Assembly (NCBI GenBank): GCA_008632985.1
Contig: QPGO01000060.1
Location: forward strand, 124,001 to 188,000
DNA from: Psammoneis japonica
Lineage: Eukaryota
Direction: 5' to 3'
Length of the DNA: 64,000 bases
The position numbers and the translations under genes are program-made. Below, piece after piece: positions 3,140-62,690 of the stretch (the stretch's first letter is position 1; every line of letters starts with the position of its first letter). The notes beneath the pieces are model-generated. The model made no database searches. It was not told the origin of the DNA and worked only from the letters and a program-made list of their open reading frames with translations.

Positions 3140-5900
3140 GTGAAACATCACTCTAAAAATGTAAAAGGGGGGACATGATGTGGAGACACAAGAAAATTTG
3201 CAAGCCAACTGTTTGCTACCGGTGTAACATTTTGCCCCTTCCAGCAAATGCTCACTGTGTTGTGGCATTGCCAGCACAGGAAAAACCCCGACTCATCCTT
3301 CCCATCAAAGGTCAGATCCAAGTTGCAGCCTCCTGCTGCTTTGCAGACAAACACAATGAAGTCTTGGTTTGTTGGTTGACCAAAATTCAGTCAGTTGATT
3401 TTGGTGTTGAACAGGCAGGCCTTGCCAAACTTGCAACTGTGTGTTGTTGTCAACAGCTGTGTCAGGTCTTGTCTTTGTTTCAACATGTTGTCACTGCAAT
3501 TGGCTTCTGTGTTGGGGCCTGGAAAGTGTTTTGCCTTACTTGCAGGCTTTGTCAAGTCCCCTGGAAGCTTGTCAAGAAATTGGCTTATCTTCAGTGCTCA
3601 TTTTCCAGGCAACAACCACCATTTGTGAATCGTGGGTGGGACCATGCATGGTCCACACCCTCAGCCAAGGCTCAGGTTTGGGTGGCAGCCAAACATTGCC
3701 AGATGCCAATTTGGTGAGAAGTTTTTAAACAATTGTTGCCAATGCTGGGGCCAGAGTCACCAAATTGGGGGTTGGGTGTCAGCACATTGAAATTCAAAAA
3801 AGTCCAGAGCAGCTCACTTTTCACAAAGCGGCTGCAGCAACAATGACCACCAAGCAGGCTTTTGGCAACAACACACACATGAGAGGAGAGAGAGTGTGGT
3901 CAAGGTGACCAAAACTCCTCCCCCCCCATGGTTTGACACACAACAGCTTGAACAGACATTGAGTGCCTGCTTTTCATTCCCTCTGAGCAAAGAAACAGGG
4001 TTCATTTCCAAGGTGCACCTTCTGTGTTGAGAGCATTTGATGCCCACAGCAGTGACTGGCCATGCTGAGATGTCTGCAACAGGGTTTCCAAAGTGCAATG
4101 CAATGAGTGAGATTGTTTGCATCAGGAGGCAATGGAGCATGTGTCCATCTGCAACTGCAGCTGATGAGGACAACAAATGCCAACAACTGGAGGGGGATTT
4201 GCTGCTCAATGAGATGCTTCATCAAAGAACTCCAACACCATCCAGCAGCAGCCAAAAGAAACCCGGATGTTGACAGATTGACACAAACAATTGACAGCTT
4301 CCATTGACTGGCAAGAGGTTGAAAAATTGATGTCATGAACATCAGCACACAAAAATGATTAAAAGCCACAACATGGCTGATTCCAACACGAGCTGTTCAA
4401 TGTCGGTTGCATGCACCGACACCACCCGCCGGTGTTGCAATGCACAAAATGAACAAATGAGCCATGGCAGAGACCTTCATTGTCATTGTTGCTGCCAACT
4501 GCCCACTCTTAAATGCCATGCCCTTTTCTTGCAGCATGTTTTGCAGCAAGTTTCAGGCTTTGTTTCCTCTGCTGTGCTGTCTAAACTTTTGGCTCAGCCC
4601 CATCACTCTCTCAACTCATGTGCAATGCACACCCAGAAAAACAATGATGGAGCATCGCAGCAACCTTCCAAAACACAAAAAGTCAACAGGCAGCCCTTGT
4701 GCAAAACCTCAAAGACCATTTGCAGTCTCAACAAACAAAGGGGGTGCAATTGGTCAACAAACTGAAGCTTTCAAGGCCACCATGCAGTTGCTTGTTTGCA
4801 ATTCTAACAAGTCTTGGTGGGGCCAAAAACCATGAAAGGATTGTCCCAGAGAATTGTGTCACAACCCCACTGAGCCCCAGCCAAATTTTCCCCACCTCTG
4901 ATGCTTTGCTGTTTGAGCTTTTGCCTTGGCCCTGTCACTCTCTCAATTCGTGCACAATGCACACCCAGAAAAACAATCATGGAGCATGGCAGCAACCTTC
5001 CAAAAAGCACCACAATCACAATGTCAGCAAGGCAGCCCTTGTGCAAAACCTCAGAAAACATTTGCAGCATCAACAAAAGAGGGGCAATTGATCAATGAAC
5101 AAAAGCTCTCAAGATCACAAAGCAGTTGCTTGTTTGCAATTCTGACAAGTCTTGGTGGGCCAAAAACAATGGAAGGGCTGTCCTGGAGAATTGTGCTGCA
5201 ATTGCGTCGAGTCCCAGCCAAATTGTTCCTGCCTCTTGTGCTGTCCTGTTTGAACTTTTAGCTCATCCATGTCACTCTCTCATTGCACGCACTGCACACA
5301 TCCAGCAAAACAATCATGGAGCAGCAGCAACCTTGCAAAAAGCACAAAGTGAACCATGCGGCCCTTGCACAAAACCTCGGAGAACATTTGCAATCTCACA
5401 ACAAAAGGGGGCAATTGACCAACAAACAAAAGCCATGTCCAGGTTGCCATGCAGCCACTCCTTGACAATTCTGACAAGTTTGGCATGGCCAAAAGCCATG
5501 GAACGATTGCCCCAAAGAAATTTGCCACATCCCCCGGGCAAACAGGGCCAAGAATCTGTCAGAATCTCCTAACTTTCAAGAGGTTGCCTTGGCTGCTTTG
5601 AAGGTGGGTGTGCTCCACTGGGACATGGTCAAGCTGATGAAAGAAAAGTGTCATCAAAGCAGAGCATTGTCTTTCATTGGTCTCTTCAAGGGTGGGCTGA
5701 TCTGCAATCTTCAACAGGATGCTCTGCTGTGGACTCAAGATGACATCAAGCATTGTTTGGAGCACACAAACATTGGCTGGAGAAAAGTTGATGGTTTGCA
5801 ACATTCTTTGCCACCACAACAGTGCAAGAACAAAGAATGAGGCACACACTTGCCGCTGATTGTCCCCACAATTTCCCACTCAGTTTGCAGAGAGACTTGT
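3140..5900. mobile_element. Degenerate TpA/CpG-depleted block, probably decayed transposon or repeat DNA of unknown family
   Basis: TA and CG are nearly absent and TG/CA is abundant. Many short Cys/His-rich ORFs lack Tyr and no domain is recognisable. The composition matches the decayed copia at 53.5-60.7 kb. Confidence 0.5.
4545..5520 (+). repeat. Three diverged tandem copies of a ~335-bp unit
   Basis: 'TGCACACCCAGAAAAACAAT(G/C)ATGGAGCA...GCAACCTT' recurs near 4625, 4958 and 5293. 'GTGCAAAACCTC' and 'ATTCT(A/G)ACAAGT' recur at similar spacing. Confidence 0.8.
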
Positions 5901-6167
5901 GCCTGCAAGGTTGGTCGATGATGTTGACTTCATAGCGCAAGCTTTTGAAATAAATCCTTTTATCTTGTTGCGCGTCAGTCGAAGTCATGGTCTGCACAGA
6001 TCCTAAAAAACTGGGTGGTGTGCCAAGAGGAGTTCGAGAGCCTTGGGGAATGAGGCTGATTCTGGCGATTGTCTTGAGTCGAGCGCCATCGACAGCATCA
6101 AATAGATTAAGAGTTCAAAGAACGTGTTCATGATGTCTATTTTCTGCATAGTCTACTGTAGCTACAA

Positions 6168-15018: not shown

Positions 15019-15593
15019 TTTTCTTGAAGCCCACAGGAGTGAAACAGAGACCGCTTTGTTCAACTGAAAACAGATTAGACCTCAAGACTTGAATTAGAGC
15101 TCTATCGATTCCACAAAGTCTTCTTGTCTTCGTCTATTTTTGCTCTATGTTGAAGTCGCAAAATGTGGAATGATGACGAAAGAAAAGCACGTGCTGAGTT
15201 GTTTGGCTCTGAAACATGCGTAAAAAACTTCCCGCCAGTTTTTCTTGGGCCACTGGAACGTGCGCATTCAACGCATAGTACAAATCTTCGTAGATTTCAC
15301 GCAGGTAGAATGAAGTACATCGGAACCGCACATTTTCGTAGGACTGAAGGACGTACCGTACTGTTCAGGTTGTATGCGCATAAAAGACGCGCACACCAGT
15401 GCAATGTCGGACAGACGACGGCCGCACAATTGATTGCGCATTGCTTGCGATTCGCACGACAAATTGCCGTTCGACGCCGACGATGACGATGACATTTTCA
15501 GACGCTGATAGAGGACGACTTCGCAACATGCACTTAACACATTTTAATCAATTCCACTGTTATGAACACACACATGCAAAGAAAGTCCCCAGA

Positions 15594-15869
15594 TGACAGA
15601 AAATGAAGGCAAATGGCAAGAATTCAAACAACAACTCCTTGCTGCTGTCTAAATGGCAGATGAGTCTCCGCTCAGAGACCGTTACAGGAGCCGAAAGACG
15701 TGCAAGTTGGTATAATCGGGCTACTGTCATTGTTCTTGTGAGCCTTGTGGCTCAAAAGCAAACTGCATCGTGCGTGAACGCGCAGAACTAAAGCACACAA
15801 AACTGTGCACGGCAAACTAAACAGCGCGCGATGCTTCGCGCGCACCTAAATCCTGTTCAAATCCTGTCA
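15594..15869 (-). repeat. 3' LTR of the copia (hypermutated copy)
   Basis: It aligns without gaps to 22424-22699 with 13 substitutions. Confidence 0.97.
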
Positions 15870-18800
15870 CTCCCCAGTTTGCTTGAGGAGCCACAGAAAC
15901 AGATTCGACTTCGGATGGAATGAAGTTCCAGAACATGAGGGGGCGGAGAAGGTCCCAGATTTGGGAGCAACCCCAATGCTTGCTGAGAATGTCAGCAGGG
16001 TTGCGGGAGCCTTCGATGAATTGGAACTCAAGGCAACCAGAGGCAATTGCCTCACGCACACGGTGGAACGACAGTGCGGTGTGTCGCTTGTGTAACTTGG
16101 AGTGCGGGATGGTGGCACTGTCTACAACCGACTTGTTGTCACCGAACATGTGACTGACGTCACGGATCGGGACGCCAAGGTGGCGCAGGGTGATGCGCAG
16201 GTCGATGGTCTGCTCAACACAAGTCCTTGCGGCAACAAATTCAGACCCGCAGGTCGCAGTCTCCACGGTGGCTTGTTTCTTAGAGAACCAATCAGCCGGG
16301 AATTTGTTGAGGAAGTGGAGCATTCCCATGACAGAGCGTCCGGTGAGCATGCAATGGTGCAAGTTTGCATCGACGTAGTGGGTGGCAGTGACGAACTTGC
16401 CAAGGGGCGGTGGAGCGTCCTTCGGGATCATCTCTTCTGCTTCACCACACACGGAATGCATCCATTCACAGGCCGGAGCAGGGAGATCCGAACAGTCGGG
16501 CTCTTCCGTGCGAACGCGGAGAGCACCGTGTCGCATCTTGGAGAGGCACCCACAGACGCATTTGGCACGATCCAAGTGGCCTTGACGGGGCGCAGCTCGG
16601 AAGCTAGAGAGTGACATGACGGCCGTGGTGATGTCAATTCGACCAAGGGACACTGCCCATTGGAGTGAACCAACAAGAGACTGGAACTTGTGAATGCCAT
16701 CGGGTCCCAGCAGTTCGGAAGTGTCCAGTTCGGGGTGGTCACCCTTCTCTAGAGGTGACAGGGTGTTGGTGGCAGGTTTCTCCCCAAACAGTCGGGCACA
16801 GCTGTCGACCATGCGCTCGATGTACTTGCGCGGAGACAGGCACAAGGTTCCGTCGGGTTCCCGGGAAAAGTCGCAACCCAGATGGAACTCAATGGGTCCC
16901 GCACCCTTGAGCTTGAACTTGTGCTTTTCCGTGAGAGTGTCGACGAAAGATTGAGGGTCCTTCATGGCAATGGCGAGGTCATCCACATAAACGGCAATGT
17001 ATTCACAGTGGTCGCCGTTCCTGCGCATCCAAATGTCGGGTTCGGCGCGGCAGGGGAAGAAGCCTTCAGCTCGCAGGCAGTCGGCGAAGCGCTCGTGCCA
17101 GCGGAGACCGGAGCTGCGCAGTCCATGCAGTGCCTTGTGGATGACAAGGATGTGTCCTTCGAGTTTGCCGAACTCGGGTCCAGCTACAATGTAAAGCTTC
17201 TCCTTGGTGGTGGCTTCAAGGTAGGCATTGCCAATGTCGGTGGCCCATGTCTCCAACTCGTTGAGTTCGGCCAGGAAAATCATCAGCCGAAGGCCACGGA
17301 GGGAGACTACTCCGGAGTAGACACTGTCGACAGGTACGTCCGTGAGGTGCCCGTCGGCTACGAGTCGTGCCTTGTGGCGACCGTCGTGTTTCACATCGTG
17401 CGCTAGGTGCACTCGGATCTTCTTGCATCCCGCAGGAGGAGTGGAAGACTTGAAGGGCCCGCAGTCATGGAAGACTTCGTATTCGTCGAGTTGGTCCATC
17501 TCGAGATTGGTTGCGTCTCCCCACTTGCGGTTGCCGTTGCGTTCGTCTAGTGACATGGCGTGTTTGTAGTTCCGGGGAACTTCGCATCCACACTTGCAGC
17601 GGGGTGCAGTGCGGAAGGAGCGAAGCTTGGCTTGGTTGGCCATGCGAAACAGCTTCTTTTGGCGCCTCGCGATGGTGCGGAACCGCTTCCAGCCATCCGT
17701 GTCGAGGAGTCCGTTCTCTCGTGCATAGATGGCACAGGTGACGGGGTCGTCCTTGGCGATGATGGCAAGAGGCTCGGACGTGATCTCCCCACTTTCCCAT
17801 TCAAGCATGATGTTGTAGCTGGAGCCTTTCCAGGTTGGGTCGTGAGGCTTCAGAGGTCCTTCGTGTGACACGATGCATCGAAATTTCCAAACAGTGGTGT
17901 CTTCGTCTTCTTGCTCAATGTGATTCATGATGTCATTGCAGGCGAGGACTTCCTCGTATTCGTCATTGTTGACAGAGCAGACGAACTTAGTGAGCTCGGG
18001 ATTGCCATTCACTTTCCATTCGTGGTCTTCGACGGCCTTGACGATGCGAGCTCTGTGGCGTTGTCCATCCTCTTGTGGCTGCATGAGGAAGGTACGTCCA
18101 ATGATGTCTTGCGGATCGAAAACTGGCATCTTGGGTGTCCTGATCTCCCCATCAGGAGAGTCGACGGGGTTGTCGTCATGGCAAGATTTGATGATGGGTT
18201 CAGGTGGCTCCCCATCAGGAGGATCAAGACGCAGGTTTCGAACGGCAGGATCGGGGGTAGCGGAGCGGACGTTGGACCGGTAGAGGATCTTCTGAGTCTC
18301 GTCAGATAGAATCTTGAAGGTCATCTGGTGGCCGACGTGCTCAGCAATGCCAACGAAGCGTCCACGCAACTCACGGGATTCAGACGGCCAATCGGAGTCA
18401 TCGAGGTGGAAGTGCACGGGTTCCCACCAGTGAAAGCGAAGCAATGGGCTGATGTCCGGGGTGGAGCCAGTGAGAGTCTCGAGGGGCGTGCGCCAGTGGA
18501 GACGTGGGGACGCTGCATGGTTGAGCATGAAGCACACGCACATGAGCGCCAGCAGCCATGTGTGGGCGGGCGAACCAAAACGATCCATGACAGTGTTCGC
18601 CATGCGCTTCACGGTCTGGCATCGACGCTCGGCAAAGTTTTGGTGTTGCTGGTGAGGCTCACTTTGCCAGCTAGAGATGAAGAGGGCGCGCAGGATCCCG
18701 AGCACTTTGTTGCTGATCTCAACTTGAGCACGGTCGCTAATGAGTTTGGATGGGGCACCACGTGCACGGATCTGATCCTCGAGTGTGTTGACAAACTCTT

Positions 18801-21486
18801 TGTCCGTCTTAGTGCCGTAGACGTCAGTGACGGTAGACTCGGTGCCAACAAACAGTTGGGCGCTGGTGCAACCAGAGTCGACGGCCGGGGTGTCGGCACA
18901 AACGGTGTCAGTGGCGACAGGCTCGTTGCGGCGGTGCACATTAAGGGCGGGGTTGGGTGATTTGTAGGCCTTGCGAAGGTGTGTACCGGCGGGCATGCGG
19001 GCGTACTGCGTGGTGCAGTCAAAAGTACGACGGACCGTGTCGGTAGGTAGGAAGCCAAAGTAAGGCCGAAGAGACTCGAAGGGGGGGTCCTTGGGCTGCA
19101 CAGTGCGCTCCGGAGGTGTAACGTCATCGCCCTGGGGGCCAATCGCATGCAGATGACACTCGCAGAACACGTCGTCGTTCGGAATGAGGTGATCATCGAG
19201 GGCGGACGCGTGATCGGCAGACAAGGAAGCGGACAAGATGGTCTCGTTGACAACGACACGATGACGGTAGTTGCCGCATTCGTCAAACAGGTTGGCAGTG
19301 GGATCGTCCTGTAGGTCAGAGATCGCGTCGTACCACTGGTCGTCGTCAGTGACAGAGTGATCGAGGACGGAAGGGTCCCATGTGTCATCACCGGTGAGGA
19401 TGACATGGGGCAGGGTGTCCCATTCGGCGTCAGTGTAAGGTCGCATGGCAACATAAGGCAGGCCAGCCTTGATGTCAATGGGGATGACACAGCCATCAGG
19501 AGTGGCAATACGTTGCAAGCCGTTGGGCACCTTGACAGAGTGATCGTTGACATCCTGTTTGTGCCATTCGAGCTGGCCGCAGGAATGGATGGTCTTGCCC
19601 TTTCCCGTGCATGCGTGCTGATGGAGGATGGCGATGACGGGACCACGCTGGGTCTCAATGACGGCACCAGCGGTGACAATGGGGATGTCCACCAATTGAT
19701 GATCGTCAATGCCCTGAACGTCGACTTGGCGAGAGGTGCGTGCAATGACGCGAACGTTGTCGCCAGCAATGCCGCCGTTGGCCCCACGATCGACTAGAGC
19801 ACCAGTGCGTGTGGATCGATGAGCAGAGGCAGAGTAAATGACATTGTGGTTGTCAACGCGGCGGCAAGTGCGGCCGTTAAGCTCCATGTTATCTGCAGAA
19901 GCTGGCGGGGTAGAGGAAGCGGCGGATGGCCCCGGTCGACTGGCATTGGGGGCTTGGTTAGGAGACAACAGACGTTGCAGATCACTGGGTGGCAGTGGCT
20001 TGCGCTTGGTGAGGTGCGCCAGGATGGGATTGTCCGAAGTGGCGTCCACATGTGGGGCGGAGTCACCAGAGTCAGCAGGAGTCGTGTTGGACAAGTTGAC
20101 ATCACCGTCACTCCCAAGGTGTTGGTCGTGAAGGTTGGCCGTAACAGACTCATGGCAGTTGCTGGCTCGCGGATTGCGGGGAGGTGGACGAGAATGCTCA
20201 AGGATGATCGCCTTGGAGGAATCGGGCAACGAGTCCCAGAGCCGTTGGTGGTCGGGAGGGAGACGTCTCCATTGGACACCGGTGAGGCTGGGACCGCGGG
20301 TGCAGGCAGCATTGGCTTGAAGGACGTCAACATCGCTGTCAATGTCGTAGAACACATCGTCGGACGGTTCCTCGGAGCAGACGTCGTGTGCGTGTGTGGC
20401 GCGTCGGGGAGCTCGAGGTGTCGTCTTGGGTTGAAACGTGCTGTCGTACTGAGCTGCCGCGGAGAGGAGCAAGCCACAGCATTGATCGTATGTGAGGCTC
20501 TTGCCACTCTGCGTACGATGCTGATCAGCTTGGTTCTTGACAGCACGGAGTTCCTCGACAGGGTGCACGGCATTCTCGAGCATGACGCGCTTCTGTCCTT
20601 CAGAGAAGTGGTCACTGGCCGGGGTGAGTGCCTCGCACTTGCGCAACTGATCTTGCCAATGAAGGATGAACCCGTGGGTCGGACCTTTCCAAGTGCCATC
20701 ACCAAGACGCGCGGTGGTGAGGTACGTGAGCAGGGTGGAGGACTCGATGGATGCGCGGGTGGAGGCAAGCGCGCACTCAGACAAGGAGCGGCAGACGGTC
20801 TGTGCGTCAGAAGACCCCACATTTTCGCGAATGAGAGCCTTGCCCTTGTCGGTGAGAAGGATGTGTTCGAAGATGGCGAACATGTGCTTTTGCTGTTCAG
20901 CAAAGAGCAGTTTGTCTTCGGGGCTGGTCGGTTTGTACGACGAGTCTAGAATGCACTTGACGTCTTGGGCACGGGCTTGTGCCACAAGTGAGGTGTGCCA
21001 AGTGTGCCACTGCTTGTCGGATTTGAGAGCCGTGAAAGCGGTGGGATCACACTTGATGCCTCGCTTGAAGTCCCGCACCGGGTCGCGTGCCTTGGTCGGG
21101 TTGGTGACATGTGGAGGTGCAAGGGGTGAGCTGCCGATGGACACAGAAGACATGCAGTCGGGGCTGAGGCGGCAGGCAAGGAACTCGTCATGCGTGAACA
21201 AAGAGGAGTTGTTGGCAACGTCAAGACCTTTGTGTGCTTTAACAATGTGCAGACTGACCAGTGCTGCTAACATGTTCTTACAACCACGGGGCAAAGGGAT
21301 TGCATCAGTGCCGTTGTCGCACTCAAGCGAGTCGATTTGGGACGGCATGAACGTGAACAGTTCCTGACATGAGTCCGTGCCGTCTTGGGCCAAAGCCAAA
21401 CGAAGAGGACTCCCAGCACCTTGGGCAAGCACGGTTCCAACCACGTGCTCGAAACCATCGGTTTGTTGCTGGCGAGTGAGAACCAT
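15817..21486 (-). CDS. Copia gag-pol polyprotein (protease-integrase-RT-RNase H), open but with many Tyr>Cys/His changes
   Basis: ATG 21486. Motifs in copia order: protease LVDRGANGG; integrase ATDTV / SDRAQ / AERR; RT KARLVADG, DIGNAYL, YVDD; RNase H YVDANL, SEF, GDN, ADILSK. The stop codon lies inside the 3' LTR. Confidence 0.95.
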   Translation of the reverse strand: MVLTRQQQTDGFEHVVGTVLAQGAGSPLRLALAQDGTDSCQELFTFMPSQIDSLECDNGTDAIPLPRGCKNMLAALVSLHIVKAHKGLDVANNSSLFTHDEFLACRLSPDCMSSVSIGSSPLAPPHVTNPTKARDPVRDFKRGIKCDPTAFTALKSDKQWHTWHTSLVAQARAQDVKCILDSSYKPTSPEDKLLFAEQQKHMFAIFEHILLTDKGKALIRENVGSSDAQTVCRSLSECALASTRASIESSTLLTYLTTARLGDGTWKGPTHGFILHWQDQLRKCEALTPASDHFSEGQKRVMLENAVHPVEELRAVKNQADQHRTQSGKSLTYDQCCGLLLSAAAQYDSTFQPKTTPRAPRRATHAHDVCSEEPSDDVFYDIDSDVDVLQANAACTRGPSLTGVQWRRLPPDHQRLWDSLPDSSKAIILEHSRPPPRNPRASNCHESVTANLHDQHLGSDGDVNLSNTTPADSGDSAPHVDATSDNPILAHLTKRKPLPPSDLQRLLSPNQAPNASRPGPSAASSTPPASADNMELNGRTCRRVDNHNVIYSASAHRSTRTGALVDRGANGGIAGDNVRVIARTSRQVDVQGIDDHQLVDIPIVTAGAVIETQRGPVIAILHQHACTGKGKTIHSCGQLEWHKQDVNDHSVKVPNGLQRIATPDGCVIPIDIKAGLPYVAMRPYTDAEWDTLPHVILTGDDTWDPSVLDHSVTDDDQWYDAISDLQDDPTANLFDECGNYRHRVVVNETILSASLSADHASALDDHLIPNDDVFCECHLHAIGPQGDDVTPPERTVQPKDPPFESLRPYFGFLPTDTVRRTFDCTTQYARMPAGTHLRKAYKSPNPALNVHRRNEPVATDTVCADTPAVDSGCTSAQLFVGTESTVTDVYGTKTDKEFVNTLEDQIRARGAPSKLISDRAQVEISNKVLGILRALFISSWQSEPHQQHQNFAERRCQTVKRMANTVMDRFGSPAHTWLLALMCVCFMLNHAASPRLHWRTPLETLTGSTPDISPLLRFHWWEPVHFHLDDSDWPSESRELRGRFVGIAEHVGHQMTFKILSDETQKILYRSNVRSATPDPAVRNLRLDPPDGEPPEPIIKSCHDDNPVDSPDGEIRTPKMPVFDPQDIIGRTFLMQPQEDGQRHRARIVKAVEDHEWKVNGNPELTKFVCSVNNDEYEEVLACNDIMNHIEQEDEDTTVWKFRCIVSHEGPLKPHDPTWKGSSYNIMLEWESGEITSEPLAIIAKDDPVTCAIYARENGLLDTDGWKRFRTIARRQKKLFRMANQAKLRSFRTAPRCKCGCEVPRNYKHAMSLDERNGNRKWGDATNLEMDQLDEYEVFHDCGPFKSSTPPAGCKKIRVHLAHDVKHDGRHKARLVADGHLTDVPVDSVYSGVVSLRGLRLMIFLAELNELETWATDIGNAYLEATTKEKLYIVAGPEFGKLEGHILVIHKALHGLRSSGLRWHERFADCLRAEGFFPCRAEPDIWMRRNGDHCEYIAVYVDDLAIAMKDPQSFVDTLTEKHKFKLKGAGPIEFHLGCDFSREPDGTLCLSPRKYIERMVDSCARLFGEKPATNTLSPLEKGDHPELDTSELLGPDGIHKFQSLVGSLQWAVSLGRIDITTAVMSLSSFRAAPRQGHLDRAKCVCGCLSKMRHGALRVRTEEPDCSDLPAPACEWMHSVCGEAEEMIPKDAPPPLGKFVTATHYVDANLHHCMLTGRSVMGMLHFLNKFPADWFSKKQATVETATCGSEFVAARTCVEQTIDLRITLRHLGVPIRDVSHMFGDNKSVVDSATIPHSKLHKRHTALSFHRVREAIASGCLEFQFIEGSRNPADILSKHWGCSQIWDLLRPLMFWNFIPSEVESVSVAPQANWGVTGFEQDLGAREASRAV

Positions 21487-22412
21487 GGCAGACAAAAAAT
21501 GGTGTCAGGACAATCAATTCTGGTTGGGAAGCGAAGGCAGACTCGAAACTTGGGTGAGAATGGACTTGACTTGAAATGGACTTGACTTGAAATCTTGAAC
21601 TATCTTAAAATCAGAAGTCGCCGGGCTTTGTCATCCCATTCGTTGTTGAGTGCTAAACTTCCCATCCGGTCCGTAGAGTTGTGCCGGCACGTCCGAACCC
21701 GCAGCTGGCGGCGCTTTGGGTTGCTTGCGAGCAGAGTAGCGGGTTGTAAACCCCTGCAGGTAAGCTGACTGGAGGTGGACAAGACCCCCGAACCGTTCTT
21801 ATTTTATGTCGGTTGGATTTCCCGATCAGGCTGGCCAGTTGACGCAGGCGTTGGGCGCTGTGGACGAACGAACAAACGCGGGAAAGCACCCTCGCCCCAA
21901 CGCAGGCTGCAATCACGGCTGCTTGCTCTCACAGTCGTCCTCGTGGACCTAGTAGAACTGTAGAGCACCAGCAGTCCGGGGTAGATCAGGTACAATGGAC
22001 TCGGTGTGCTTGTAGAGTGGCAGCAAAACCGCAGTCCGAAGAGTGGGTACAGGTTCTTGGCCGTGAAGATATGTATATATATATATGTCTTCAGCAACGA
22101 AGATCCTTGAATATGTAGGGTTCTTGACCGTTAACCGATGAATAGGTATATCAAGGGATGAGGATCAAGGATAGACTTGGATATGACCGTTGAATGTATG
22201 TCTTCAGCGATCGAAGGTAGTATAATCAATCCAGATATCCAGCGGTAAGGAGACTTGACGGTGACGTTAACTTCCTGCCGATGCCCTGGTATTGAATGCG
22301 CGTAGACTTGCCGATGTATGTAGAATATATACGGAGGTCCACGTAGAATTAAAAAGTCGTTGGTAAATCAACGACGACGATGGCGGTTGCTCAATGGGTT
22401 GACAATGAGCAA

Positions 22413-22423
22413 GACTGTTAATC
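22413..22423 (-). promoter_or_regulatory. Candidate primer-binding site complementary to a tRNA-Asn(GTT) anticodon arm
   Basis: The plus strand reads GACTGTTAATC immediately inside the 5' LTR, which is an Asn anticodon stem-loop sequence. There is no TGG-type PBS. Confidence 0.55.
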
Positions 22424-22699
22424 TGACAGAAAATGAAGGCAAATGGCAAGAATTCAAACAATAACTCCTTACTGCTGTCTAAATAGCAGATGAGTCTCCG
22501 CTCAGAGACCGTTACAGGAGCCGAAAGACGTGTAAGTCGGTATAATCGGGCTACTGTTATTATTCTTGTGAGCCTTGTGGCTCGAAAGCAAACTACATCG
22601 CGCGTGAACGCGCGGAACTAAAGCACACAAAACTGTGCACGGTAAACTAAACAGCGCGCGATACTTCGCGCGCACCTAAATCCTGTTCAAATCCTGTCA
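22424..22699 (-). repeat. 5' LTR of the copia (retains TA and CG)
   Basis: It aligns without gaps to 15594-15869. Confidence 0.97.
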
Positions 22700-22704
22700 C
22701 CAGA

Positions 22705-25700
22705 CGAACTTTTCTCTCAATTGTCGTTCGACAATGGAGAGCATCAAACAATGGAAAAAACAGAGCTCGGCATTGTGTGATGTTTGCTGTCAAGCAGAGG
22801 TTGCTCACGGGGACTTGCATGACTTGACACATTCTTAAACTCAATGGACTGAATGTCTGCAAGAGTGAACAAAAGACTCTGGGGCATGTCTCTGCCATCC
22901 CTGTCGTCTCACGATGACGCACAAACTTCATGTCACCGATTTTTGGTGATGAGGCACGCAGCGCTCCAGGCATTTCTCACAGAGCAGAAAATCCTGAAAA
23001 ATCATGTCATCATGCCTTCACCCCTTTGTTCTGCGATGGCCTTAAATCCTCCCAATTTGGGACAAATCGAGGGATTTGAAGACAAACGCATGTCCATCGT
23101 TTCCATCAACAAATGTCCGCGATTTCAAATCAAAAACCTGCCCTCCCAACCAGGTTGTGCACATCAACAAGTTGGTGACAAAGCAACATTCCATCTGTGT
23201 TTTTCTGACTGACATTTGATCACTTTGCTTGTTTTCCAAAATCTTGATTTGTGGTGCATGTTTGCACAATTCAACAATGCAAGCATTTGGTTTGCACCGC
23301 ATTTTTACAACTGAATTTTTCAATCCCTTGTTGCTCTCCAGTTCATTTGTGACTTCCTTCAAAGCAGTCATGAGCTCCTGTGTCTTCTGCTCTGTTTGCA
23401 CCTTGTTCATGTTCTTGTTTTGACTGTCTCATGATTTCTCCCTTGCCTCCTTGAACTGGTTTGCCAGCTCCTGCACCACCCCTTGTGTTCCATCATCTCT
23501 TCTGGGTCTTTTTCCAACCAGGTGAATGTGCTTGAGTTGTTGTCTGTGTCCTTGCCTTCTTCTCTGCAATGACAAGCTCTGGCAGGATCCTCTCACAGAA
23601 GTCTTCTCCCCTGGTTGGGTTTCCTCCATTGTCCACCTCCACATCACAGTCTGAGCCAAAAGAGCTGTCCTTGTTGTTGCTCTTGCACACTCTGCATGCC
23701 ACACATCAAAGTTGTTCTTCAGGAGCATGTGGGCAAATGCTTTGGCACATGATGTGCCCATCCTTGTCTCCCAACCATTCTCTCCCACTGCTGGTTGCAA
23801 GCAACAGGCAGTTGCAGAACACCGTGTGCAATGCAGGGTTGGACAAACGCTCGTGGAATCTTTCCAGCAATGACAACACACAATTGTTTTTTGTGGCAAG
23901 TGCAAAGCTTTGTGCAACAAGGAATGCATCAACAACAATGTCAGTGTTTGTCTTGCTTGTCAACGCTGCTGGCCACACACTCTCACTGTGGCTGCAATTG
24001 GTCCTGCTGAGCCTGGTGAGCATTTGATTGCTTCAGTGCTGGCCACTCCTGATGCATTCTTCCTTTCTTCATTTTCATCCACAGAAAATGCAGGCATGAA
24101 GTTTGTTGCACCTCTGGAAGCTCCAACAGAGAGCATTCTGCATTCCATCCATCAGCACTGGTCCACAGTGCTGGGCAAAGTCTTTGTGCAGCATGCTCAT
24201 TTCCTCCATCTGCCTTTCAACAAACACAAACATGATGCTGAGAAACACCTTTTCTTTGACATGGTCTCTCACCTTGATTTTGCTGCATGCCCTGCCATCA
24301 TTGGCCATCCACTCAGCTGGGTTCACTTGCCTCTGGAATGTGGTTGTCATGATTTGGTTGGCACTTGGTTGTGTGGTGTTTTTTGCAAAGCTCACCTTTT
24401 GCTTGTCAGTCATCTTGTTGCCAGGGTTCACCATTGCAATCTGATCTCCTTTACAATCAGCCAATGCTCCCAGGTCAGGTGTGCATTTGAGCCTTCTTGA
24501 GATTGAAAATCTCCACACAAGCACCCACATTGTCATGTGTGGACAACATTGGCATGGAAATGCTCATGAAGTCCAATGCCTCCTGGGTTCAGTTCTCAAT
24601 GCGTGGATGCAAGTCCAGCAGAAAATTGTGCCTGTGCTGCAGCCAAAGAGTCAACCACTTTGGCAGGAGGAGATTGATGCTGACTGAAAAGAAATCTTCA
24701 ATGAGTTTCCCACCTCCCGGGTCAAGCAGCAGTGCACATGGACCACTTTGAATGCAAAAAAGCATTTGTGTTTTTGCCTCATGAAACTGGCAAAGTTTCG
24801 CCACATTCGCCACTGCTGTGGCCAAATGCAGCATGTCACACAAACATTGGCAAAGAAACCACACCCAACAGCCTTTGCATTGTCATCAATTGCACCTCTC
24901 CTGCTGTGGAGAAGGTGTTGCTGTCTTCAGCAACAAGATCTTTGCTTGGCAATGGAGTGAGAAGGTTCTGTCTTTGTTCTTCCGCAGTGAGGCATCACCA
25001 TCATCCTGAACAGACACACACCAAAATCTTCTTTAGCCTCATCAGCCAGCCCACAGTGGTCTCTTGTTGTCATTTGTGATGGTGTTGTGCAATGGTGTTG
25101 CAAAGCATCCTCACATGGTGCAGTGCACACTTCAAGAGTTTTGCACTCAGAAAAGGCGTCAGGGGCAATGTTGTCATCCTTGGAGCAACCCAGCATTTGC
25201 TGCTGAGTTTTCATCATGCAGGACATTCTGTGCAATGACACAGGGTGTTGTCAGGGGCAGGTTCTGTAATTCTGCCATTTTCTTGGTCAGATTCTTGAGA
25301 AGTTTGCACGGGAGTCCTCTTGCACCTTTGTCACTTGTGTGGATCACTCCTGGCAGCATCGCATTTGGCTGTGGAGCCACCATGCCCACATTTGAGCTGT
25401 TTCAATCATGCCAGTGGATGCTTGAGGTGCTGAGCCATGTTCCTCAATGGAGCTCTTGTAGGGCAGTCATGGCCATCGACACACTGTGCAATTCGTGCTC
25501 TCATCCACACCTGCTTCCTCTGCACTGTTCAACAAGAATTTGCCATGCCAAGAGAAAAACACTGAGGAGCACGCGAAACATTGTTCTGGTGTTTTGGATG
25601 GCACTGCCACATTCACAGCACACTCGGTCGAAACATGCTGTTTGTGCAGATGACCACTCTACACAGGGCAATGTCGGTTGTCTGCATCGGCACGTACTCG
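22705..25700 (-). mobile_element. Decayed TpA/CpG-depleted element, possibly a DNA-transposon remnant, with the copia inserted at its edge
   Basis: TA and CG are nearly absent. Broken minus-strand fragments ('VRDHVKEKVF', 'AFAHMLLKNNFDVW', 'GWKK') resemble diatom TE accessory ORFs, but the family could not be assigned. Confidence 0.5.
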
Positions 25701-34857: not shown

Positions 34858-34939
34858 GGTACAATCTCAAATCGCTGTCTCTGTCTCGCAGTGAGCAGTG
34901 AGTGCGCAAGCTACAGTACCCGTCGTAGCTCTACGTAGG

Positions 34940-53152: not shown

Positions 53153-53508
53153 GACTGTAGCACAAAAACGATTCAGGATGGAGAAGTGGCGAGCACAAGA
53201 GGGGATGGTTCATGGGTTCTCGGTTCTAGCTAAAGTAGAGAGTCATTCACAGTCACGGTTCATTCACGGTTGCCATTTTGGATTTCCACAAAGTCACTGT
53301 AGGGCCTCTAGCTAGTGACAGACAGACGGACCCCATGAGCACACATGCCGTACACACAACACATGCGGCACATCACATAAATGATACACCACACACCAGA
53401 CCAGTCCCCCATTGTTTTCTTGGCAGTCAGCAGCTGGTGAAATGGTCACAACCATGGTCCTCTGCAGAGGCCAGATGTTGCAAAAGTTTCCCACCACAAC
53501 CTGGCTGC

Positions 53509-56500
53509 TGTCAGTCGACCTGCGCTGGCTGCTGTGTGTGTGTGGCCAGACCACTGTTTGCAGATGATGATGGCCAGGAGGCATCTGGGTTGGACAGATG
53601 AGTTGAGATCTGCTCTTCTCTCACTCTTTCTCACCAGCGCACATGTTGTCACTGTCACTGGTTTGCAGGGAGGAACCTTGTGCTTGTTGCTCTTGCTCCT
53701 GTTGCTGCTTTGTCACTGCCAGGTTGTGGCCTTGTCAGAGAGGTCGTCATTCTTCTGTGCTGCAACTCCCATCGTGATGCACACTCGGTTTGTGAGCTGA
53801 GCAAGCCTGCTGCCATTTTTGATCCTGGAAGTGATTTTTTCATCAGTGCACAGCCCCACAGACCAGCACCAGGTTTCTGTGTGTTCATGACTGAAAATTT
53901 GGTGCACCTCCAATCAAAACCATGTTGCATTTGACCCCCAAGAAGCCCTTTTTAAAACCATCACAAAGAGAATTTTTCTGTTGTCTTTGCACAACATGCT
54001 TGAAACCAGGAAGTCATCAAACACTTCAACAGCCTTTGCAGCAGCATTGATCAGGGTTGATTTTTTGATGATCCAAGGCATGCAAAGCTGTGGACAACAT
54101 TGTTGATCTCATGAAGGAACACATCCTTGCAGAGCTCATCCTCCCAGAAACCCTTGACCCCCTGCTGCCAACTCACCACTGCCAGTCACATCACTCTTCA
54201 GAAAGGCATCCCTCAATGTTGCCAGCAGCCTTGCATCTTCTGACTGAGCATCATCTCATCTGTCCTGACAGAGATGATGGATCACAAAATCAAGAAGGAT
54301 GCCCTTCAGGCTGACTGCACCAAGGTGATTGTCACTTTGTCTGCATCTCACATCTCCACTTCTCCCCCACTGTGCAACATGCATTCAGGGACCCAAGCAA
54401 TTTTTTCATGCCACGTGCCCACAAGTTTTTGCTCTCAAGACTCTGCCAGCATTGTCCACTGCTTCAGGCTCTCTTGACATCTCCGATTTGATGGACGCAC
54501 TGAACAACAACCTTGCTGCATCAAAAGCACCCCCCGCTGCAGGTTCTGGTGACACTGAGACCCCTGCTGCCATGACCTTGTCATCCAAATTTTTGTTTGG
54601 CCCAGATGCCCTGCCTGAGGACACATGTGAGCATCTTGACAAAAAGGTTGCTGCTGATGAAGTCATCATCAAGAGTTCCTCATCAACCCTGTGCTGGTGG
54701 AAATCCATGCAATCTTGGCATTCTTGATCATCTCATTCTTGTGGATGGTTTGCTGTTTGTGATGCAAGCTGTCCCAGACCACAAATCTCTTCTTCAAAAA
54801 CACAGCATTTCTCATGATGACTCACCACACGGTGTTCATCAATGGCATCAGAATTTTCAATGTCATGCTGGTGTTGACTGTGGCCATTTTGTCCACCCCT
54901 TGTGGTGTTTCAACAAGAATTATTTTGGCAACTGGGGGTTTGCTGTTGGCAACACTGCTGCTGATTTTTCCCAGTGTGTGCACATTCATTGCATTGGTGC
55001 AACTTGCATGCTGTCAAACCTTCTGTCGCTGCACATTGTGGCTTTCTGCTGTGATGTGATGGGTGACAAGCCTTGAAGCAAATCCTTTCTGATGCAGACC
55101 CCACATTCTGTGTGACGAAGCTGTTGGTCTTGTTGACTGTCACCCACGACAAGGCAACACCTTTCTCTTCCAGACCACTGTGCCCAATTCAAGGGTTTTT
55201 GCAGCTGCATGCCTGCATCTTTGACACCAAGTCTTCACTGAACAATGAAAGGGAGATGACTGTTTTCATCAAGGACACAAAGTGCTCCAAATTTTCAACT
55301 CATTTGACATGCTCAGAATGCTGTCAGCCTGTTGACACAAGTGCACTGATGACCAAATTTTCTTCTTTTTTGCATCAGCCCAATGGCCCCATTGCCACTG
55401 AGTCAATGCTTTGGTGCTTGGACCATCTCTGGAGTCTGGCAAGTCTCCAACCAGCTCTTGCCTGTGGCACATGATCCCCTGGTTGATGCAGTTGCATTGC
55501 AAGAAGACTCTTTTGACACCCTGTGTGGTGAACTGGCACATCTTGATGTCACACCCAATGATGGAGATTGCCTTTGCATCATTTGCACATGGCATCTGTC
55601 TTCAAGATCAAGGTTGCTCCCAATGAAGCCACCAAATGTCCATGCTTGGCATGCGCTGGCGATCATCTTTTTGATGATTGCCCCATCCTCCAGAGTGACC
55701 CACGCATCAAGGGTTTTCACATTTGATTGTGAAGCAGCACAACATGCCTCTGCTTTTGCTGGCTCCTGGGAAAACTTGCCTGCCAGACAGAATGGGCCTG
55801 CTCTTTCACCATCTTAAAATCCTCTGGAATTGAGGGCCATTGCAGCTGATCTCAGATCCACAATGCTGCCCCCACCTTCTTCCCACTGAGACAACACAGA
55901 TGATTGCAGGGGGCAACTGTGAAAGAGTGGCTGTCCATTCCATCATTGTCCACTCCAAAGCCTCTTTCTCCAGCAGATGATGTGATGCCTGGTGCTGCTC
56001 CTCTGACTTCTTTGGGGAACCTCCAACGTCAACAAGCTGTGCATGACAATCCCAGGGCACAAAGTGTTGATCCAGAGGGAGGGCTCAAGAGCAGGGGAGA
56101 GCAGAGGAAGATGCTGAGCAAGACTTGGAACCATTCAGTTTGATGGCACTCTTGGCTCCTCAGCTGCACTCAACTCTGTGTGCATCTCACCAACTGCACC
56201 TGCCTGGGTCTTGTGCCTTCCATCACCTGCAACGCTGACCATGAATCTTTGAAGGTCAGCACCATCCAGTTTGACCCTAAAGAATGTTGTGCTCAGTCAG
56301 ACACTGGCAAGCATGCACCCTGCACTGTGGCAAAAGGACCTTCTCCACTCATGCCAACTGTTCACCCCAGACAACCCACACCCACTCCAGGTCAACCCAG
56401 CCCCATCTTGGTGTGAGTGCCATTGACCACCATGGTTGCAGTTGTTTGTGTGCACCTGCTGAGACCACCAACAAAGGGCATGTTGCTGTGCATGAAGCTT

Positions 56501-59500
56501 GCTGCTGCCATCCCCAACTCTGGCCCACCTTGATTGATCAATGAGTTCCATGTGCCACCAAGGGTGGACACAAGAAAGACTGTCCAGTTGATTGCTTGCT
56601 GAAGTTCCATGACCTTGGAACATGAGAACACATTGAAAAGCATTGTCTTTGATCCAGTCAAGATGCTGTGGTCAATGAACAACATGTCAATGGAAAATGT
56701 TTTGCTCATCCTTTGATCCCACTGGAATCTGATGATGACTTGGATCTTGCCATTCAGGAACTCAGTGAGGATGATCCCACTTTTGCAAAAGAATGCGAAC
56801 CTGTTGCCACCCACATGATCAACACCTGCTGCAAAGAAAACAAGCACTGTGCCCTTCAGGAGGAAATGAAAAAGATTCCAAGGGCTTGCCAAGGCATTCT
56901 GTTTGATGCTTGCATGAAAAAGAACAGGTGCCATTGCACGCAACCCCTCAAGGCTGATGCTGAATGTCTCCCCTGGCACCAGCACCTCAGCCACCCCCAG
57001 CAATCGTGTCCTGTGTCTCATGCCCACAGGGACATTGGTGGTGTCCCAAGTTTGCCCATGGTGTGCCCTCCCTTGTCACCTGTCCAGCTTGCATTTGCAC
57101 CAAACAAAGAACAAAGACACCGGCTGGCCCCAATTCCACTTGGGCTGCTGCTCAGTCATGCGCCAAAGTTCAATGGTGGAATTTTTGTTCTCTGGTCTAA
57201 AGTCAAAGGACAAAGAGTGCACAAAGAATTGTGTTGGTCCAAATTTTGTGACCTGTTGGATCACAGTGCATGATGACTTTGCTCACCACCACCTCCATGG
57301 TGAAACCCACATTTCCAAGGCATCTCCTTTGGACTGGCTTTTTTGATTCTTAAATGAGCATTCACCAAAATGTCCAGACAAATGGATCAGGGTGCTGATC
57401 CCAAGGTTTGGCAACTCTTTGAGCAAGACTTCCAACATGCACTCAGACCCACTGGCACGGATGCCTCCAACCAGAACAGTCCCACAGAATGCAGTCATTT
57501 GACCATGGCTGATGTGATCCAGGTGATGCTCATCAAAGCAGACCTCCCCACAAAATTCTGGCCCTGTGCTTTTCATCAGCCACTGGTGCATCCAGATCAA
57601 GAAGAGTGCCATCCCCTCCAAGGGTCCGAGTGTTGCACCCATTGCTGCTGCTGCTGCTGCTGGCAAGGTTGACAACTTCAGTGCATTCCACACCTTTGGC
57701 TGCCACATTTGGGCATGTTCTTGCTTTGATGCTCCAGTGGCAAGTTCCACTCTGTGTCTCAGAAAGGTTTCTTCCTTGGCTGCCTGCTGGGCATGACCAA
57801 GAACATCCTGTGGTGCAACCCTGCATCCAGGCATCAAGACTGCTGCCAGGCATGTTTGCATGATGAGGGTGTGAATGACCTCCAACAGGATGAGACTTGT
57901 CCCCCAAACATTTGGCACCATTTCCACCAACTCAGAATGGCAAACCTTTTCCTGCTAAAGACAAGGAGACAACCATTGACAACTTCTGTTTCATGGGAAA
58001 CCATTTGCAGAGACCCTTCTTGAGCACAACATGAAGCACTCCATTGCTGATCCTGCATTTGGGCTGGACTTCAAAATGGATGTGCAGTGCAGTCAGGTGC
58101 ATGTGTTGGGTGTCAAGCATGGCAGCTCTGTGCCCCATCTTTTCTCATCATTGCTCAAAGCCACCAAGTGCTGCAAGATCTTGGGTGCTTGCATTGTGTT
58201 GATTGATGGCATGGATGTCTTTGCCCAAGATCAAGCCTTGGCTCTGAGCTCTGACATCTCCATGTGACATGGACAACCCAGATTTCAAGATTGTGTTTGC
58301 TCCTGAATGTTGTCTCTAATCATGTGAGCTGGAACATGCTTTGGTTGAGCACAGCATTTTTGCTTCATCCCCAGATGACAAGGAAGAACATGTCCCTGAT
58401 CTCACCACCATGGATGTGCACGCCATTGCTGCCCTGCAGTTTCTTGATGTTGATTTCTCCCCTCTCAATGAATGTGAGCTGGATTCACTCCCAACTGTTG
58501 ATCATGAGAATGGTGCTGCATTCAACATTTTTGTGATTTCTTCCCATGCCATCACCCCAAAAGAATGTGAACTTGATGGTTTTGCTTGCGGTCACCTTGA
58601 GAAGCTCCCTGCTTGGCCACAATGGCATGGTGAATTCAAGCAATTGGACCAGTGCCCACTTCCATCTGCTGGGAATGTTTGGTGCTCCCATCCCATGCCC
58701 CAAGAACACTGTCACATGGTGGCCCCACTGGCAACACACAATGCAAAATCAGGTTGCACTCAACAGCCCCAATGCTGTTGTGAGGGTTCACCCCGAGCTG
58801 CTCCTGCTCTCCACTGCCTGCAGTCTACACACTTGTTGTGTGTCAAGCAGCCAATCCAACAGTTGCTTTTTGCACTCTCTGCATCAATGGGACATCAAGT
58901 TCATTCTGGTGATGCTCAAGATGCCTGTGCACACTCTTCAAAACCATCTGCTCTGGTTTGTGTGCAGGTTGATGAGACCTTTGCTGCATGGCACAAGTCA
59001 CATTTTGGTGTTGACCTGGATCACTCCATTGTCCCACCAACTCTCAATGCCTTGCAGGGTCACCCAGAATCTGCCACATTGACCAGTGCCAAGCTCCTTT
59101 TTCACAACAGAACACATGACAAGTGTGTTTGCACTTCTGCCTTTCAGAGAAAGTGCACTCTCTTGCTCCAACAACAGGTTGATGATTTCTCCATTGTTTG
59201 CCTGGAGGAATCACGTGTGATGATCAAGATCTTCAATGAACTCAGTGCTGCTCCACAACTCCCCTGTGAGGACTCCACTTCTTTCAAGCATCTTGACTCA
59301 TGTGTGGACTGGAGCTCTTCAATGGTGTTGACATTCATCAGCATGATGATTCCATGTCTGTTGCATGTCATGGCTGCATTGAGGATTGGGGACTGACTTC
59401 ATGTGGTTGGATCACCCTGTCTGCTGACAAATCTGCCTCTGACTGCCAGGCCATGCTGATGCCAGTGGAATCAGTCTCCTGGTTGTGCTCTGATGTTGGT

Positions 59501-60710
59501 CACATTGAAGGAGATCTCAAGAACATGCAGCCAGAATTGAAGGAGGCTCAAGGAGGTTTTGGACATCGAGACCTGCTTGGTGAGTTGTTGTGTGTGCATG
59601 TCATTTGCCGCCTTGACATCGGCTGTGCTGTTATGACCCTTTCCAAGTTTGTGGTGTCTCCTGCTCTGGTGCACTGCGTTGCATTGAAAGGGATTGCCAG
59701 CCCTCTTCACTGCATGAAGTGTTGGGATGTCAGCTGCAAGAAGCCCATCAAGGACTCAACTTTGCCTGTGCACCCCCACAAACAACTTGAGGCAGACCCA
59801 ACTCTCTCTTTGTTCCCATCAGCAGATTCTCTTGCACAGCTGCTTGCTTTCTTGGATGCATTCTGCAATGACCTTCATGACCATTGCTCTGCCACTGGCT
59901 GTGGTTGCATGATGTCAGCCAGTGAGGCAGTTCCTTGCCATTGCAAGACAAAAATGGTGGCTGCGACCAGTTCCATGAAGGCTGAGTGAGTTTTGTGTCA
60001 CTCACTGGCACCACTGCAAAACATGTCCTGTGCCTGCAATGATCAGTCCTCAAGAAGCTTGGTTGCCCCCTCAAGATGATGCCACTCCTCTCTTTGTTGA
60101 CAGCAAATCAGTGCCATCAAGATCACCAACAATTGTGTTCCCACCAAGCAATCTTGCCACATTGACATCCAGTGGTTTGTCATCCAAGACTGGAAAGAAG
60201 ATGGGGGTGCCATTGCCAGACACATCCCAGCCATTGTCAACCCCAGCGATGATCTCACCAAGGCTGCTCTTGGTTTGATGCCACATGCCCATCATGCTCA
60301 CCAGCTCATGGGATGCTGCCACTGAGTCTTTTGTCCTGACTCTGAATGGCATCTGCTGAATTGCCCTTTTTGTGTTTTGTTCTCTTGTTTGTTGGTCATC
60401 TGGTCTACATTGCTCTGGAGACCAACTGCTGTCTTCCCTTTCATTCTGTCTGTGATCTGCACTGCCTTTTTAGACATGCTAGATCAGAGGAGGGTGTCAG
60501 TCAACCTGGTCTGCTGCACACGGTGCCAGACTGTTTGCAGATGACAGCCAGGCATCTAGACCAGACAGACAAGCAGATCTCTCTGAGATTTGCTCGTCTC
60601 ACTCTTTCTTGCTGGCACCCATGTTGTCACTGTCACTGGTTTGTGGGGAGGACCCTTGCACTTGTTGCTCTTGATTTGCTGCTCTGATGGCTGCTGTTTT
60701 CTCACACAGT
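53509..60710 (+). mobile_element. Heavily decayed Ty1/copia element (frameshifted, Tyr-depleted)
   Basis: Diverged LTR-like repeats start TGTCAGTC(G/A)ACCTG at 53509 and 60495, the latter after the purine tract AGAGGAGGG; both contain CATGTTGTCACTGTCACTGGTTTG. Relics: integrase (MDQG...PTGTDASNQN...KFWPCAF, ~57370), RT (GSPRAAP, GDAQDACAHS, LQGHPES, QVDDF, ~58780-59190) and RNase H (LLGELLC, HIDIQWF). The LTR 3' ends are approximate. Confidence 0.85.
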
Positions 60711-62094: not shown

Positions 62095-62690
62095 AACGCA
62101 GATTCTTAAAAATCCTCATTCCCCAAAACGGTCATTTTTAAGGATGGATCGTCGAGATGAGGTCTCTTTACGCGCGAGCTCGCATTTTTTGGAAAAAACC
62201 CGGATTTCTCGTGCTGGATGCGCGCGCTCGCCAACAAAATATTTTCAGCGATAGGTCGAACTTTGTCCCTTCGAAAGACATCATAGAATGTGTTGGCGAT
62301 GGTTGTGACCATGCGCGATCTTTAGCTTGACGACTGTAGATGTGTCCACAGCCAGTCAAACGCCAATTGTCAGCTTTTCCTGGAAAGTTGTGGCTTGTCT
62401 CCCACAAGCAGTGCGATTTTGGCCAAAAACAGCGGTTCATCGCATGTGACAACTGCACCGAATCCGACAATTGGCGTTTGAAGGTTGAAATGTGTAGTTC
62501 ACATACAGATCTAACAGCCCTGATGGGGGCTGGACACAGTCACATGTGTTTGGGGGTGCTCAGAGGCATCGCAAAATGACGCGGGCGAAGTGCGGGGAAA
62601 TTGCAAAACCACGAGCTAATTGAAAAAACACCTCATCTAGACGATCCATCCTTAAAAATGATGCCGTTAATTTTTGAGAATCTGTGGTCG
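62095..62690. mobile_element. Segment bounded by inverted repeats (MITE-like or transposon end)
   Basis: 62132-62163 and 62630-62661 are reverse complements at 31/32 bp, with weaker extension outward. Confidence 0.55.

Follow-up and report, generated by a model that had tools for sequence, protein, structure and literature searches.

The two LTRs of a copia element in the 64-kb stretch of DNA analysed here (the window) differ at 13 of 276 positions without any gap. The question raised by this locus is what kind of process produced these differences, which sites it prefers and on which molecule it acts. An earlier note, made from the letters alone, had proposed that the mutated adenines prefer 5'-TAY while YTAR sites survive, and had read this bias as the signature of an enzyme rather than of spontaneous decay. 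We compared the LTR pair, the other copies of the copia family and three old TA-poor blocks of the same window. Repeat DNA in the window shows a DNA-level, strand-symmetric change of TpA to CpA or TpG with a context bias, and we hold this with high confidence as a phenomenon. Its chemistry is a separate matter, which is weighed below.

Gene content and features of the locus

The window is gene-dense, intron-poor eukaryotic DNA. Its Pfam matches are to methionine synthase MetH, an ISWI-type remodeller, an NSD-type SET protein, a cyclin, UCH and a CbbX-like AAA protein. Proteins named from Helicotheca, Seminavis, Cylindrotheca and Ditylum match the CbbX frame at 91-92% identity, and the MetH piece shows 77% identity to marine sequences and 64% to Triparma. 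On these matches, the window probably comes from a diatom. Each of the three tandem units of the MetH locus consists of a homocysteine-S-methyltransferase and a pterin-binding module, and the units are followed by one single B12-binding and activation part. The units share 94-97% identity (3-6% differing, mostly at codon-spaced sites) and open frames continue through them; this has the appearance of a genuine triplication of the N-terminal half of MetH under selection, and not of a collapsed assembly. Islands with a TA O/E of 0.9-1.15, compared with ~0.5 in the surrounding genes, were seen at 22001-22500, 28001-28500, 34501-35500, 48001-48500 and 50501-52000, and these short non-depleted stretches are probably intergenic or promoter DNA. 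The features used in the analysis are collected in Table 1.

Table 1. Positions of the copia element, the depleted DNA and the MetH locus in the window
Feature	Position	Strand	Description
Block A	3230..5930		9 TA and 20 CG left; CA/TG O/E ~1.8
Tandem units in block A	4570-5534		three units of 332-337 bp, 74-80% alike
MetH locus	6168-15063	-	three tandem 2258-bp units at 8312-10570, 10571-12828 and 12829-14975
Target-site duplication	15589..15593 (left), 22700-22704 (right)		CCAGA, 5 bp, read from sequence
3' LTR	15594..15869	-	276 bp with TG...CA ends; 95% identity to 22424-22699; each of the 13 differing sites reads CA/TG
Copia polyprotein frame	15817..21495	-	open, 1892 aa, RVT_2; TA O/E ~0.27, CG O/E ~0.95
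Leader between 5' LTR and frame	21500..22423	-	TA not depleted, O/E 0.5-1.0
5' LTR	22424..22699	-	TA at 9 differing sites, CG at the other 4; 17 TA and 20 CG in total
Block B	22700..25560		TA nearly absent from 22700 on; CG absent too from ~23130
Block C	53390..61890		8.5 kb; 16 TA and 47 CG left
Old LTR-like direct repeat in block C	53604-53712 and 60584-60686		81% over 109 bp, ~6.98 kb apart
Partly depleted stretch	62100..64000		62100-62900: 16 TA (9 YTAR), CG normal
Partly depleted stretch, distal part	62900-64000		2 TA, CG O/E 0.4-0.6, 60-bp tandem repeats

LTR differences confined to TA and CG dinucleotides

At nine of the 13 differing positions, the right LTR has TA where the left has CA or TG, and at the remaining four it has CG where the left has TG or CA. 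All 13 changes fall on the 74 bases of TA or CG dinucleotides, with none among the other 202 bases (p=1.6e-8). Since a new insertion receives both of its LTRs from a single template, the 13 differences arose after integration and at the DNA level. On the + strand, the TA events comprise five A>G and four T>C changes, and all nine occurred in the 3' LTR only (p=0.004). The same holds for all 13 differences if the CG sites share this polarity; the four CG sites in particular could also have changed from TG to CG in the other LTR. TA sites were lost no more slowly than CpG sites, at 9 of 17 TA and 4 of 20 CG in this young LTR pair (p=0.047).

Contigs of a public run (X1) pile up on the copia element with a summed depth of ~7e4-2e5 against ~60 on flanking single-copy DNA, which indicates that the family is very abundant. 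Within the family, 447 of 539 variant places were transitions, and the family-wide counts on the two strands were 138 A>G and 131 T>C, and 93 C>T and 85 G>A. For a context test at the family level, we took the best 40 of 544 variant places by support (39 of them inside the element), which include 10 TA sites. Among the 34 transitions listed in these best 40 of 544 places, 31 lie in YR dinucleotides.

TA- and CG-depleted blocks

For composition, the three-block set was taken as 3230-5930, 23130-25560 and 53390-61890, 13.6 kb in total. The O/E values of TA, CG and CA/TG were 0.03, 0.10 and 1.86 in the blocks and 0.57, 1.01 and 1.15 in genic DNA, respectively, while the other twelve dinucleotides exhibited almost no difference between the two. 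CA and TG are about equally frequent on the + strand of the blocks, and the GC content of the affected DNA stays near 48-50%. In a 500-bp profile, the borders of the depletion are sharp, within ~100-200 bp, and those of TA and CG coincide in blocks A and C. The internal repeats of the blocks are 20-25% diverged and carry many transversions; the blocks are thus truly old, and their state requires only a high relative rate and no burst.

The earlier note had treated the decayed blocks as transposable elements, which our comparisons did not support in that form. The evidence that they are repeats consists of internal repeats and of elevated read depths over part of block B, at 140-690 compared with 60 for single-copy DNA. 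On the other side, the blocks gave no credible Pfam or copia match. Among 78 block ORFs of at least 90 aa, none scored above the Pfam cut-off and one TMEM126 match fell below it. A profile of 120 copia homologues and the piece from the window, run against six-frame block translations, returned nothing with E<1, and tblastn of the copia protein on the blocks with E up to 10 gave scattered short matches only, the best at E=0.02. The direct repeat in block C is spaced as in an LTR retrotransposon, yet no pol homology is left. Many long open frames are present within the blocks. In the partly depleted DNA at the end of the window, a 60-bp tandem array at 63135-63710, with units 64-79% alike, overlaps long open frames that run past the window end.

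Direction of the change

Four results agree and point to TA as the probable ancestral state, which would have changed to CA or TG; the LTR sites themselves are compared without an outgroup. The first is the composition of the old blocks given above, and the second comes from other copies of the family. At 17318/17319, the TA of the window copy is CA in 59% and TG in 17% of the family depth. At 16151/16152 three states coexist, with TG in the window, A at 16152 in most copies and C at 16151 in 22%. The old block repeats contain six to eight aligned CA<->TG double differences per 150-330 bp, compared with none in 2258 bp of a genic control, as expected if a single palindromic TA or CG was resolved twice independently. 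In the copia polyprotein, conserved Tyr is replaced by Cys or His. Across 178 conserved columns from 120 homologues, the window copia keeps Tyr in 3 of 9 columns and other residues in 160 of 169 (p=9e-6), and the Tyr replacements are Cys three times and His, Phe and Trp once each. When the window copia was compared with one homologue, Tyr-to-Cys was found seven times and the reverse once. A composition inherited within the family, or codon usage, may account for part of the low TA of the copia frame instead of damage after insertion. The survivor classes of the frame and of the leader with the 5' LTR were 16/33/16 and 23/32/11, respectively, which is only a slight YTAR shift and too small to carry weight.

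Sequence context of TA loss

Read on the strand where A changed to G, the nine LTR events are TAC five times, TAT twice, TAG once and TAA once, and our recount is identical to the tally in the earlier note. Counted per adenine over the 17 TA sites, with two adenines per site, 7 of 15 in TAY and 2 of 19 in TAR had mutated (Fisher p=0.025). Divided by the 3' base, the mutated fractions were 5/8 for TAC, 2/7 for TAT, 1/7 for TAG and 1/12 for TAA, and these events favour the 3' base as the one that sets the rate. The LTR alignment also confirmed that all four CTAA sites are unchanged (22480, 22619, 22648 and 22677, which correspond to 15650, 15789, 15818 and 15847).

The three blocks retain 30 TA sites, of which 20 are YTAR, eight YTAY, two RTAR and none RTAY. 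Genic TA sites are distributed quite differently over these classes, with 261, 377, 435 and 498, respectively (17/52/32% YTAR/mixed/RTAY; chi-square p=2.5e-12). Depletion is therefore unequal among NTAN contexts, and the order predicted in the earlier note, with RTAY most and YTAR least depleted, was borne out. The seven survivors that it had named are real and lie within 1-2 bases of the positions given there, namely TTAA at 53953, 55815 and 57351, CTAA at 56278, 57198 and 57956, and CTAG at 60557. Moving the block borders inward by 100 or 300 bp left the survivor result unchanged. The ancestral NTAN mix of the blocks was represented by proxy, by genic DNA and by 1.2 kb of unmutated copia DNA (the leader and 5' LTR), which served as a TE-derived baseline. 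The bias persisted against this copia baseline (YTAR/mixed/RTAY 23/32/11; p=3e-6) and when the baseline was built from the sequence flanking every YR step of the blocks (p=1.2e-6). The genic baseline of these robustness tests leaves out 1-3000, and its proportions are the same as those of the fuller genic set. Expressed as survival proxies, the contexts range from TTAA (0.30) and CTAA/TTAG (0.28) through CTAG (0.11), TTAC/GTAA (0.06), TTAT/ATAA (0.04) and CTAC/GTAG (0.04) to ATAC, ATAG, ATAT and GTAC, all at 0.

We fitted a Poisson rate model in which each adenine is lost at a rate given by its 3' base. Two rates, for Y and R, described the data far better than one (likelihood-ratio chi-square 45.2, p=1.8e-11), with a kTAY/kTAR ratio of 3.8. 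A fit with four rates gave kA 0.48, kG 1.0, kC 2.48 and kT 3.22, and gained little over two rates (p=0.09). As the model expects about one RTAY survivor and none was seen, a palindromic RTAY recognition site is unnecessary. Survivor counts alone do not separate an A followed by Y from an A with R two bases upstream; the events and the products separate both. The products TGY and TGR numbered 1718 and 1446 in the blocks and 2850 and 2904 in genic DNA (p=1.7e-5).

In the copia family, all seven mixed sites among the 10 TA sites listed had changed on the predicted strand (p=0.008). Within the best 40 of 544 variant places, these seven changes are six gTAg to gCAg and one cTAc to cTGc. An exception is the YTAR site at 18673 (cTAg), which is changed in 85% of the other copies. 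The partly depleted stretches (22700-23130 and 62100-64000) retain 20 TA sites, 12 of them YTAR. CG survivors exhibited no flank bias, with 44:80:40 in the corresponding classes compared with 1010:2488:1122 in genic DNA. The context rule is drawn from small samples, namely nine events, 30 survivors and 10 family sites in one 64-kb window.

Nature of the process

A rate at least that of methyl-CpG decay, the dinucleotide specificity, the half-site flank rule, the confinement to repeats and the clustering in one LTR all argue for a process that is enzyme- or modification-dependent rather than spontaneous. We put the probability that such a process acts on DNA and is aimed at repeats at roughly 0.55. 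The enzymatic reading in the earlier note stands as far as context bias, rate, specificity and repeat confinement go; its adenine-specific form does not, as no adenine deaminase was evidenced and the TA signature is strand-symmetric. Because of this symmetry, A>G in T-A-Y and T>C in R-T-A are one and the same change, and the attacked base may be either A or T, which sequence does not separate. Genes are spared, and the MetH triplication in the same window has a mixed, codon-spaced spectrum that includes new TA, which indicates that the process is not triggered by duplication as such.

In repeat DNA of the window, TpA turns into CpA or TpG (A:T to G:C) alongside the ordinary decay of CpG to TpG/CpA, so that both palindromic YR steps finish as CA/TG. 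Each adenine of a TA site acts as an independent half-site, with T-A-Y (R-T-A on the opposite strand) lost ~3.8 times faster than T-A-R, and RTAY consequently vanishes first while YTAR (TTAA, CTAA/TTAG and CTAG) lingers. In the mechanism that we propose, the attack would be tied to the silenced chromatin of repeats, similar to RIP with the opposite base change. Among the possible chemistries, we tentatively place DNA adenine deamination by a TadA/ADAT-like deaminase first, as the sequence context would suggest, at odds of somewhat less than one in three. The fuller proposal is a little less likely again: a natural enzyme, most simply an adenine deaminase derived from TadA/ADAT, might act on silenced transposons and convert T-A-Y to T-G-Y on either strand, a kind of 'inverse RIP'. 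To our knowledge, no natural DNA adenine deaminase has been described in eukaryotes.

The resemblance to TadA/ADAT enzymes and to TadA-derived adenine base editors lies in the A-to-G change (through inosine), the 5' T/U and the 3' pyrimidine. Natural TadA edits the UACG anticodon loop, and a 5' U preference is common to ADAT/TadA enzymes. A 5' T is likewise found here, as every A/G or T/C difference between the LTRs falls in a TA or CG dinucleotide. At the 3' side, the LTR events (TAC 5/8, TAT 2/7) and the block rates (kT 3.2, kC 2.5) indicate a pyrimidine and not C alone, and this preference, with C about equal to T, appears looser than the UAC of TadA. For one engineered TadA, a review gives a YAC context (PMC13109818). 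TadA/ADAT enzymes act on single-stranded loops or R-loop DNA, whereas both chromosomal strands are equally affected here.

Alternative explanations

At least two other chemistries fit the pattern as well. In misdirected mismatch repair, which we rank second and regard as unlikely, a T:G-specific activity that guards 5mC in repeats would resolve G-opposite-T errors at TpA to C:G. On the G strand, a preceding C makes G.T the best substrate of thymine DNA glycosylase and a preceding T the second best, the latter corresponding to a TpA site. This repair model fits the strand symmetry and the borders that TA and CG losses share in blocks A and C, and efficient T:G repair also predicts that CG stays near normal where TA is low, as in the copia frame (CG O/E 0.95). 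A precedent is very-short-patch (Vsr) repair in E. coli, in which a 5-methylcytosine-guarding system turns CTAGG to CCAGG (PMC2715241). It likewise converts TA to CA and depletes a TA-containing word; it is, however, bacterial, tied to Dcm sites and genome-wide, whereas the change in the window is confined to repeats and favours RTAY, with CTAG among the survivors. A clock-like process limited by replication errors should, moreover, leave both LTRs alike, and nine of nine TA events lie in one LTR (p=0.004). Misdirected repair also predicts gains of CG from TG, and the old blocks are CG-poor. Ranked third, and with clearly lower odds, is a thymine chemistry suggested by analogy, in which a TET/JBP-type dioxygenase would mark T in R-T-A of repeats (as 5hmU or 5fU) and mispairing with G would give T>C. 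The TA signature can equally be written as T>C in R-T-A, and dinoflagellates place 5hmU on repeat elements, where it helps silencing and prefers T in TA and TC (PMC11572971). The dinoflagellate base is an epigenetic mark and is not shown to cause T>C decay; organisms rich in 5hmU retain their T, so that the mark itself is not strongly mutagenic. We know of no thymine modification of the 5hmU/5fU type in diatoms. The remainder of our expectation falls on chemistry other than a deaminase, T:G repair or thymine oxidation.

We give each of the other three explanations very little weight. RNA editing of the element transcript by an ADAR- or ADAT-like enzyme, written into new copies by reverse transcription, would suit a family that is highly variable at TA sites and dominated by transitions. 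We rejected it, as edits would be identical in both LTRs and the LTR differences post-date integration. It also expects changes on the sense strand only, against the near-equal A>G and T>C counts in the family and the five and four in the LTR, and the old blocks show no strand bias between CA and TG. Equally improbable, and likewise rejected, is the reversed polarity, in which C-to-T changes at CpA, as in fungal-type RIP, produced the TA of the right LTR and the left LTR lost four CpG. The 13 differences would then split 9:4 between the LTRs instead of 13:0, and many diatoms carry DNMT4 enzymes, of function not known, which may group with fungal RID (PMC9998398). Old repeat DNA is, on this reading, expected to be TA-rich and is nearly TA-free; other copies carry both CA and TG at single TA sites, old repeats differ by CA<->TG doubles, and conserved Tyr codons were lost rather than gained. 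Only marginally better are the chances that no targeted process exists and that the pattern comes from DNA that is foreign or unusual in composition, from an artefact of sequencing or assembly, or from selection that disfavours TA and CG. The blocks gave no protein homology, and joint avoidance of CpG and UpA occurs in some viruses. An artefact is unlikely because block B is recovered, at single-copy depth and with 0-1 differences, in independent contigs of the public run, and a TA O/E of 0.03 far exceeds any selective avoidance known to us. In addition, the same change occurs as separate events both between the two LTRs, whose target duplication is intact, and among family copies, and the context rule is true in all three data sets.

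Comparison with RIP and methyl-CpG decay

With ascomycete RIP, the proposed enzyme- or modification-dependent process shares a dinucleotide-specific transition in repeat and transposon DNA, sharp borders, wrecked coding capacity and skewed dinucleotide ratios. RIP converts C:G to T:A, mainly CpA to TpA, and the DNA becomes TA-rich and AT-rich (PMC2621366, PMC7882544). In the window, in contrast, TA is lost through A:T-to-G:C changes, GC stays at ~48-50% and no stop codons arise. RIP is triggered by duplication and hits every copy, whereas a genic 2.26-kb triplication was spared here and only one LTR of the pair was affected. Fungal-type RIP was considered as a candidate and set aside, as neither its base change nor its TA enrichment is found (TA O/E 0.03, CA/TG O/E 1.86). 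The part of PMC9998398 that we could consult mentions no mutational signature for diatom DNMT4.

Methyl-CpG deamination turns CG into TG/CA in the same blocks, without flank bias and with the same end products. The CG O/E of 0.10 in the blocks and four of the 13 LTR differences are as expected from it, and it accounts for the CG part only. TA is beyond its reach, and in the young LTR TA loss (9/17) was faster than CG loss (4/20). A full-text literature search found no description of transposon decay from TA to CA/TG in diatoms or elsewhere, with most subscription journals outside its coverage.

Consequences of TA loss

By the genetic code, a change from TA to CA or TG abolishes TAA and TAG and cannot give rise to a stop codon. 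Affected elements therefore keep open frames while Tyr turns into Cys or His, and neither the 1892-aa frame nor the long block frames are a sign of function; long open frames in such DNA in general are not evidence of function. If 'inverse RIP' is true, elements would be disabled by Tyr-to-Cys/His and similar replacements without stop codons or a GC shift, and the enzyme would be the first natural DNA adenine editor and represent a new class of genome defence. As all 13 LTR differences lie at hypermutable sites, dating by LTR divergence is inflated. Old repeats can be recognised cheaply by a composition free of TA and CG and rich in CA/TG. The half-site rule (TAY) helps to focus the search for an enzyme, and a natural DNA adenine deaminase, if this is what acts here, would be relevant to base editing. 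If the conversion of TpA to CpA/TpG is general in diatoms, it would be a major mutational force in a key phytoplankton group, of which we found no description. It would add a second case, chemically different, of genomes that mutate their own transposons.

Relatives of the element

A protein search with a 333-aa piece of the copia frame returned 356 matches, the best at 64% identity and none of the same family, and these homologues were used solely for the conserved-Tyr test. A scan of viral contigs with a 27-row alignment gave no further copies of the element, and a metagenome scan gave one locus at 49% identity. This locus, a related copia fragment on a metagenome contig of 2352 bp (49% protein identity), has a CG O/E of 0.24 and a TA O/E of 0.6, and thus shows CpG decay without the TA loss of the window copy.
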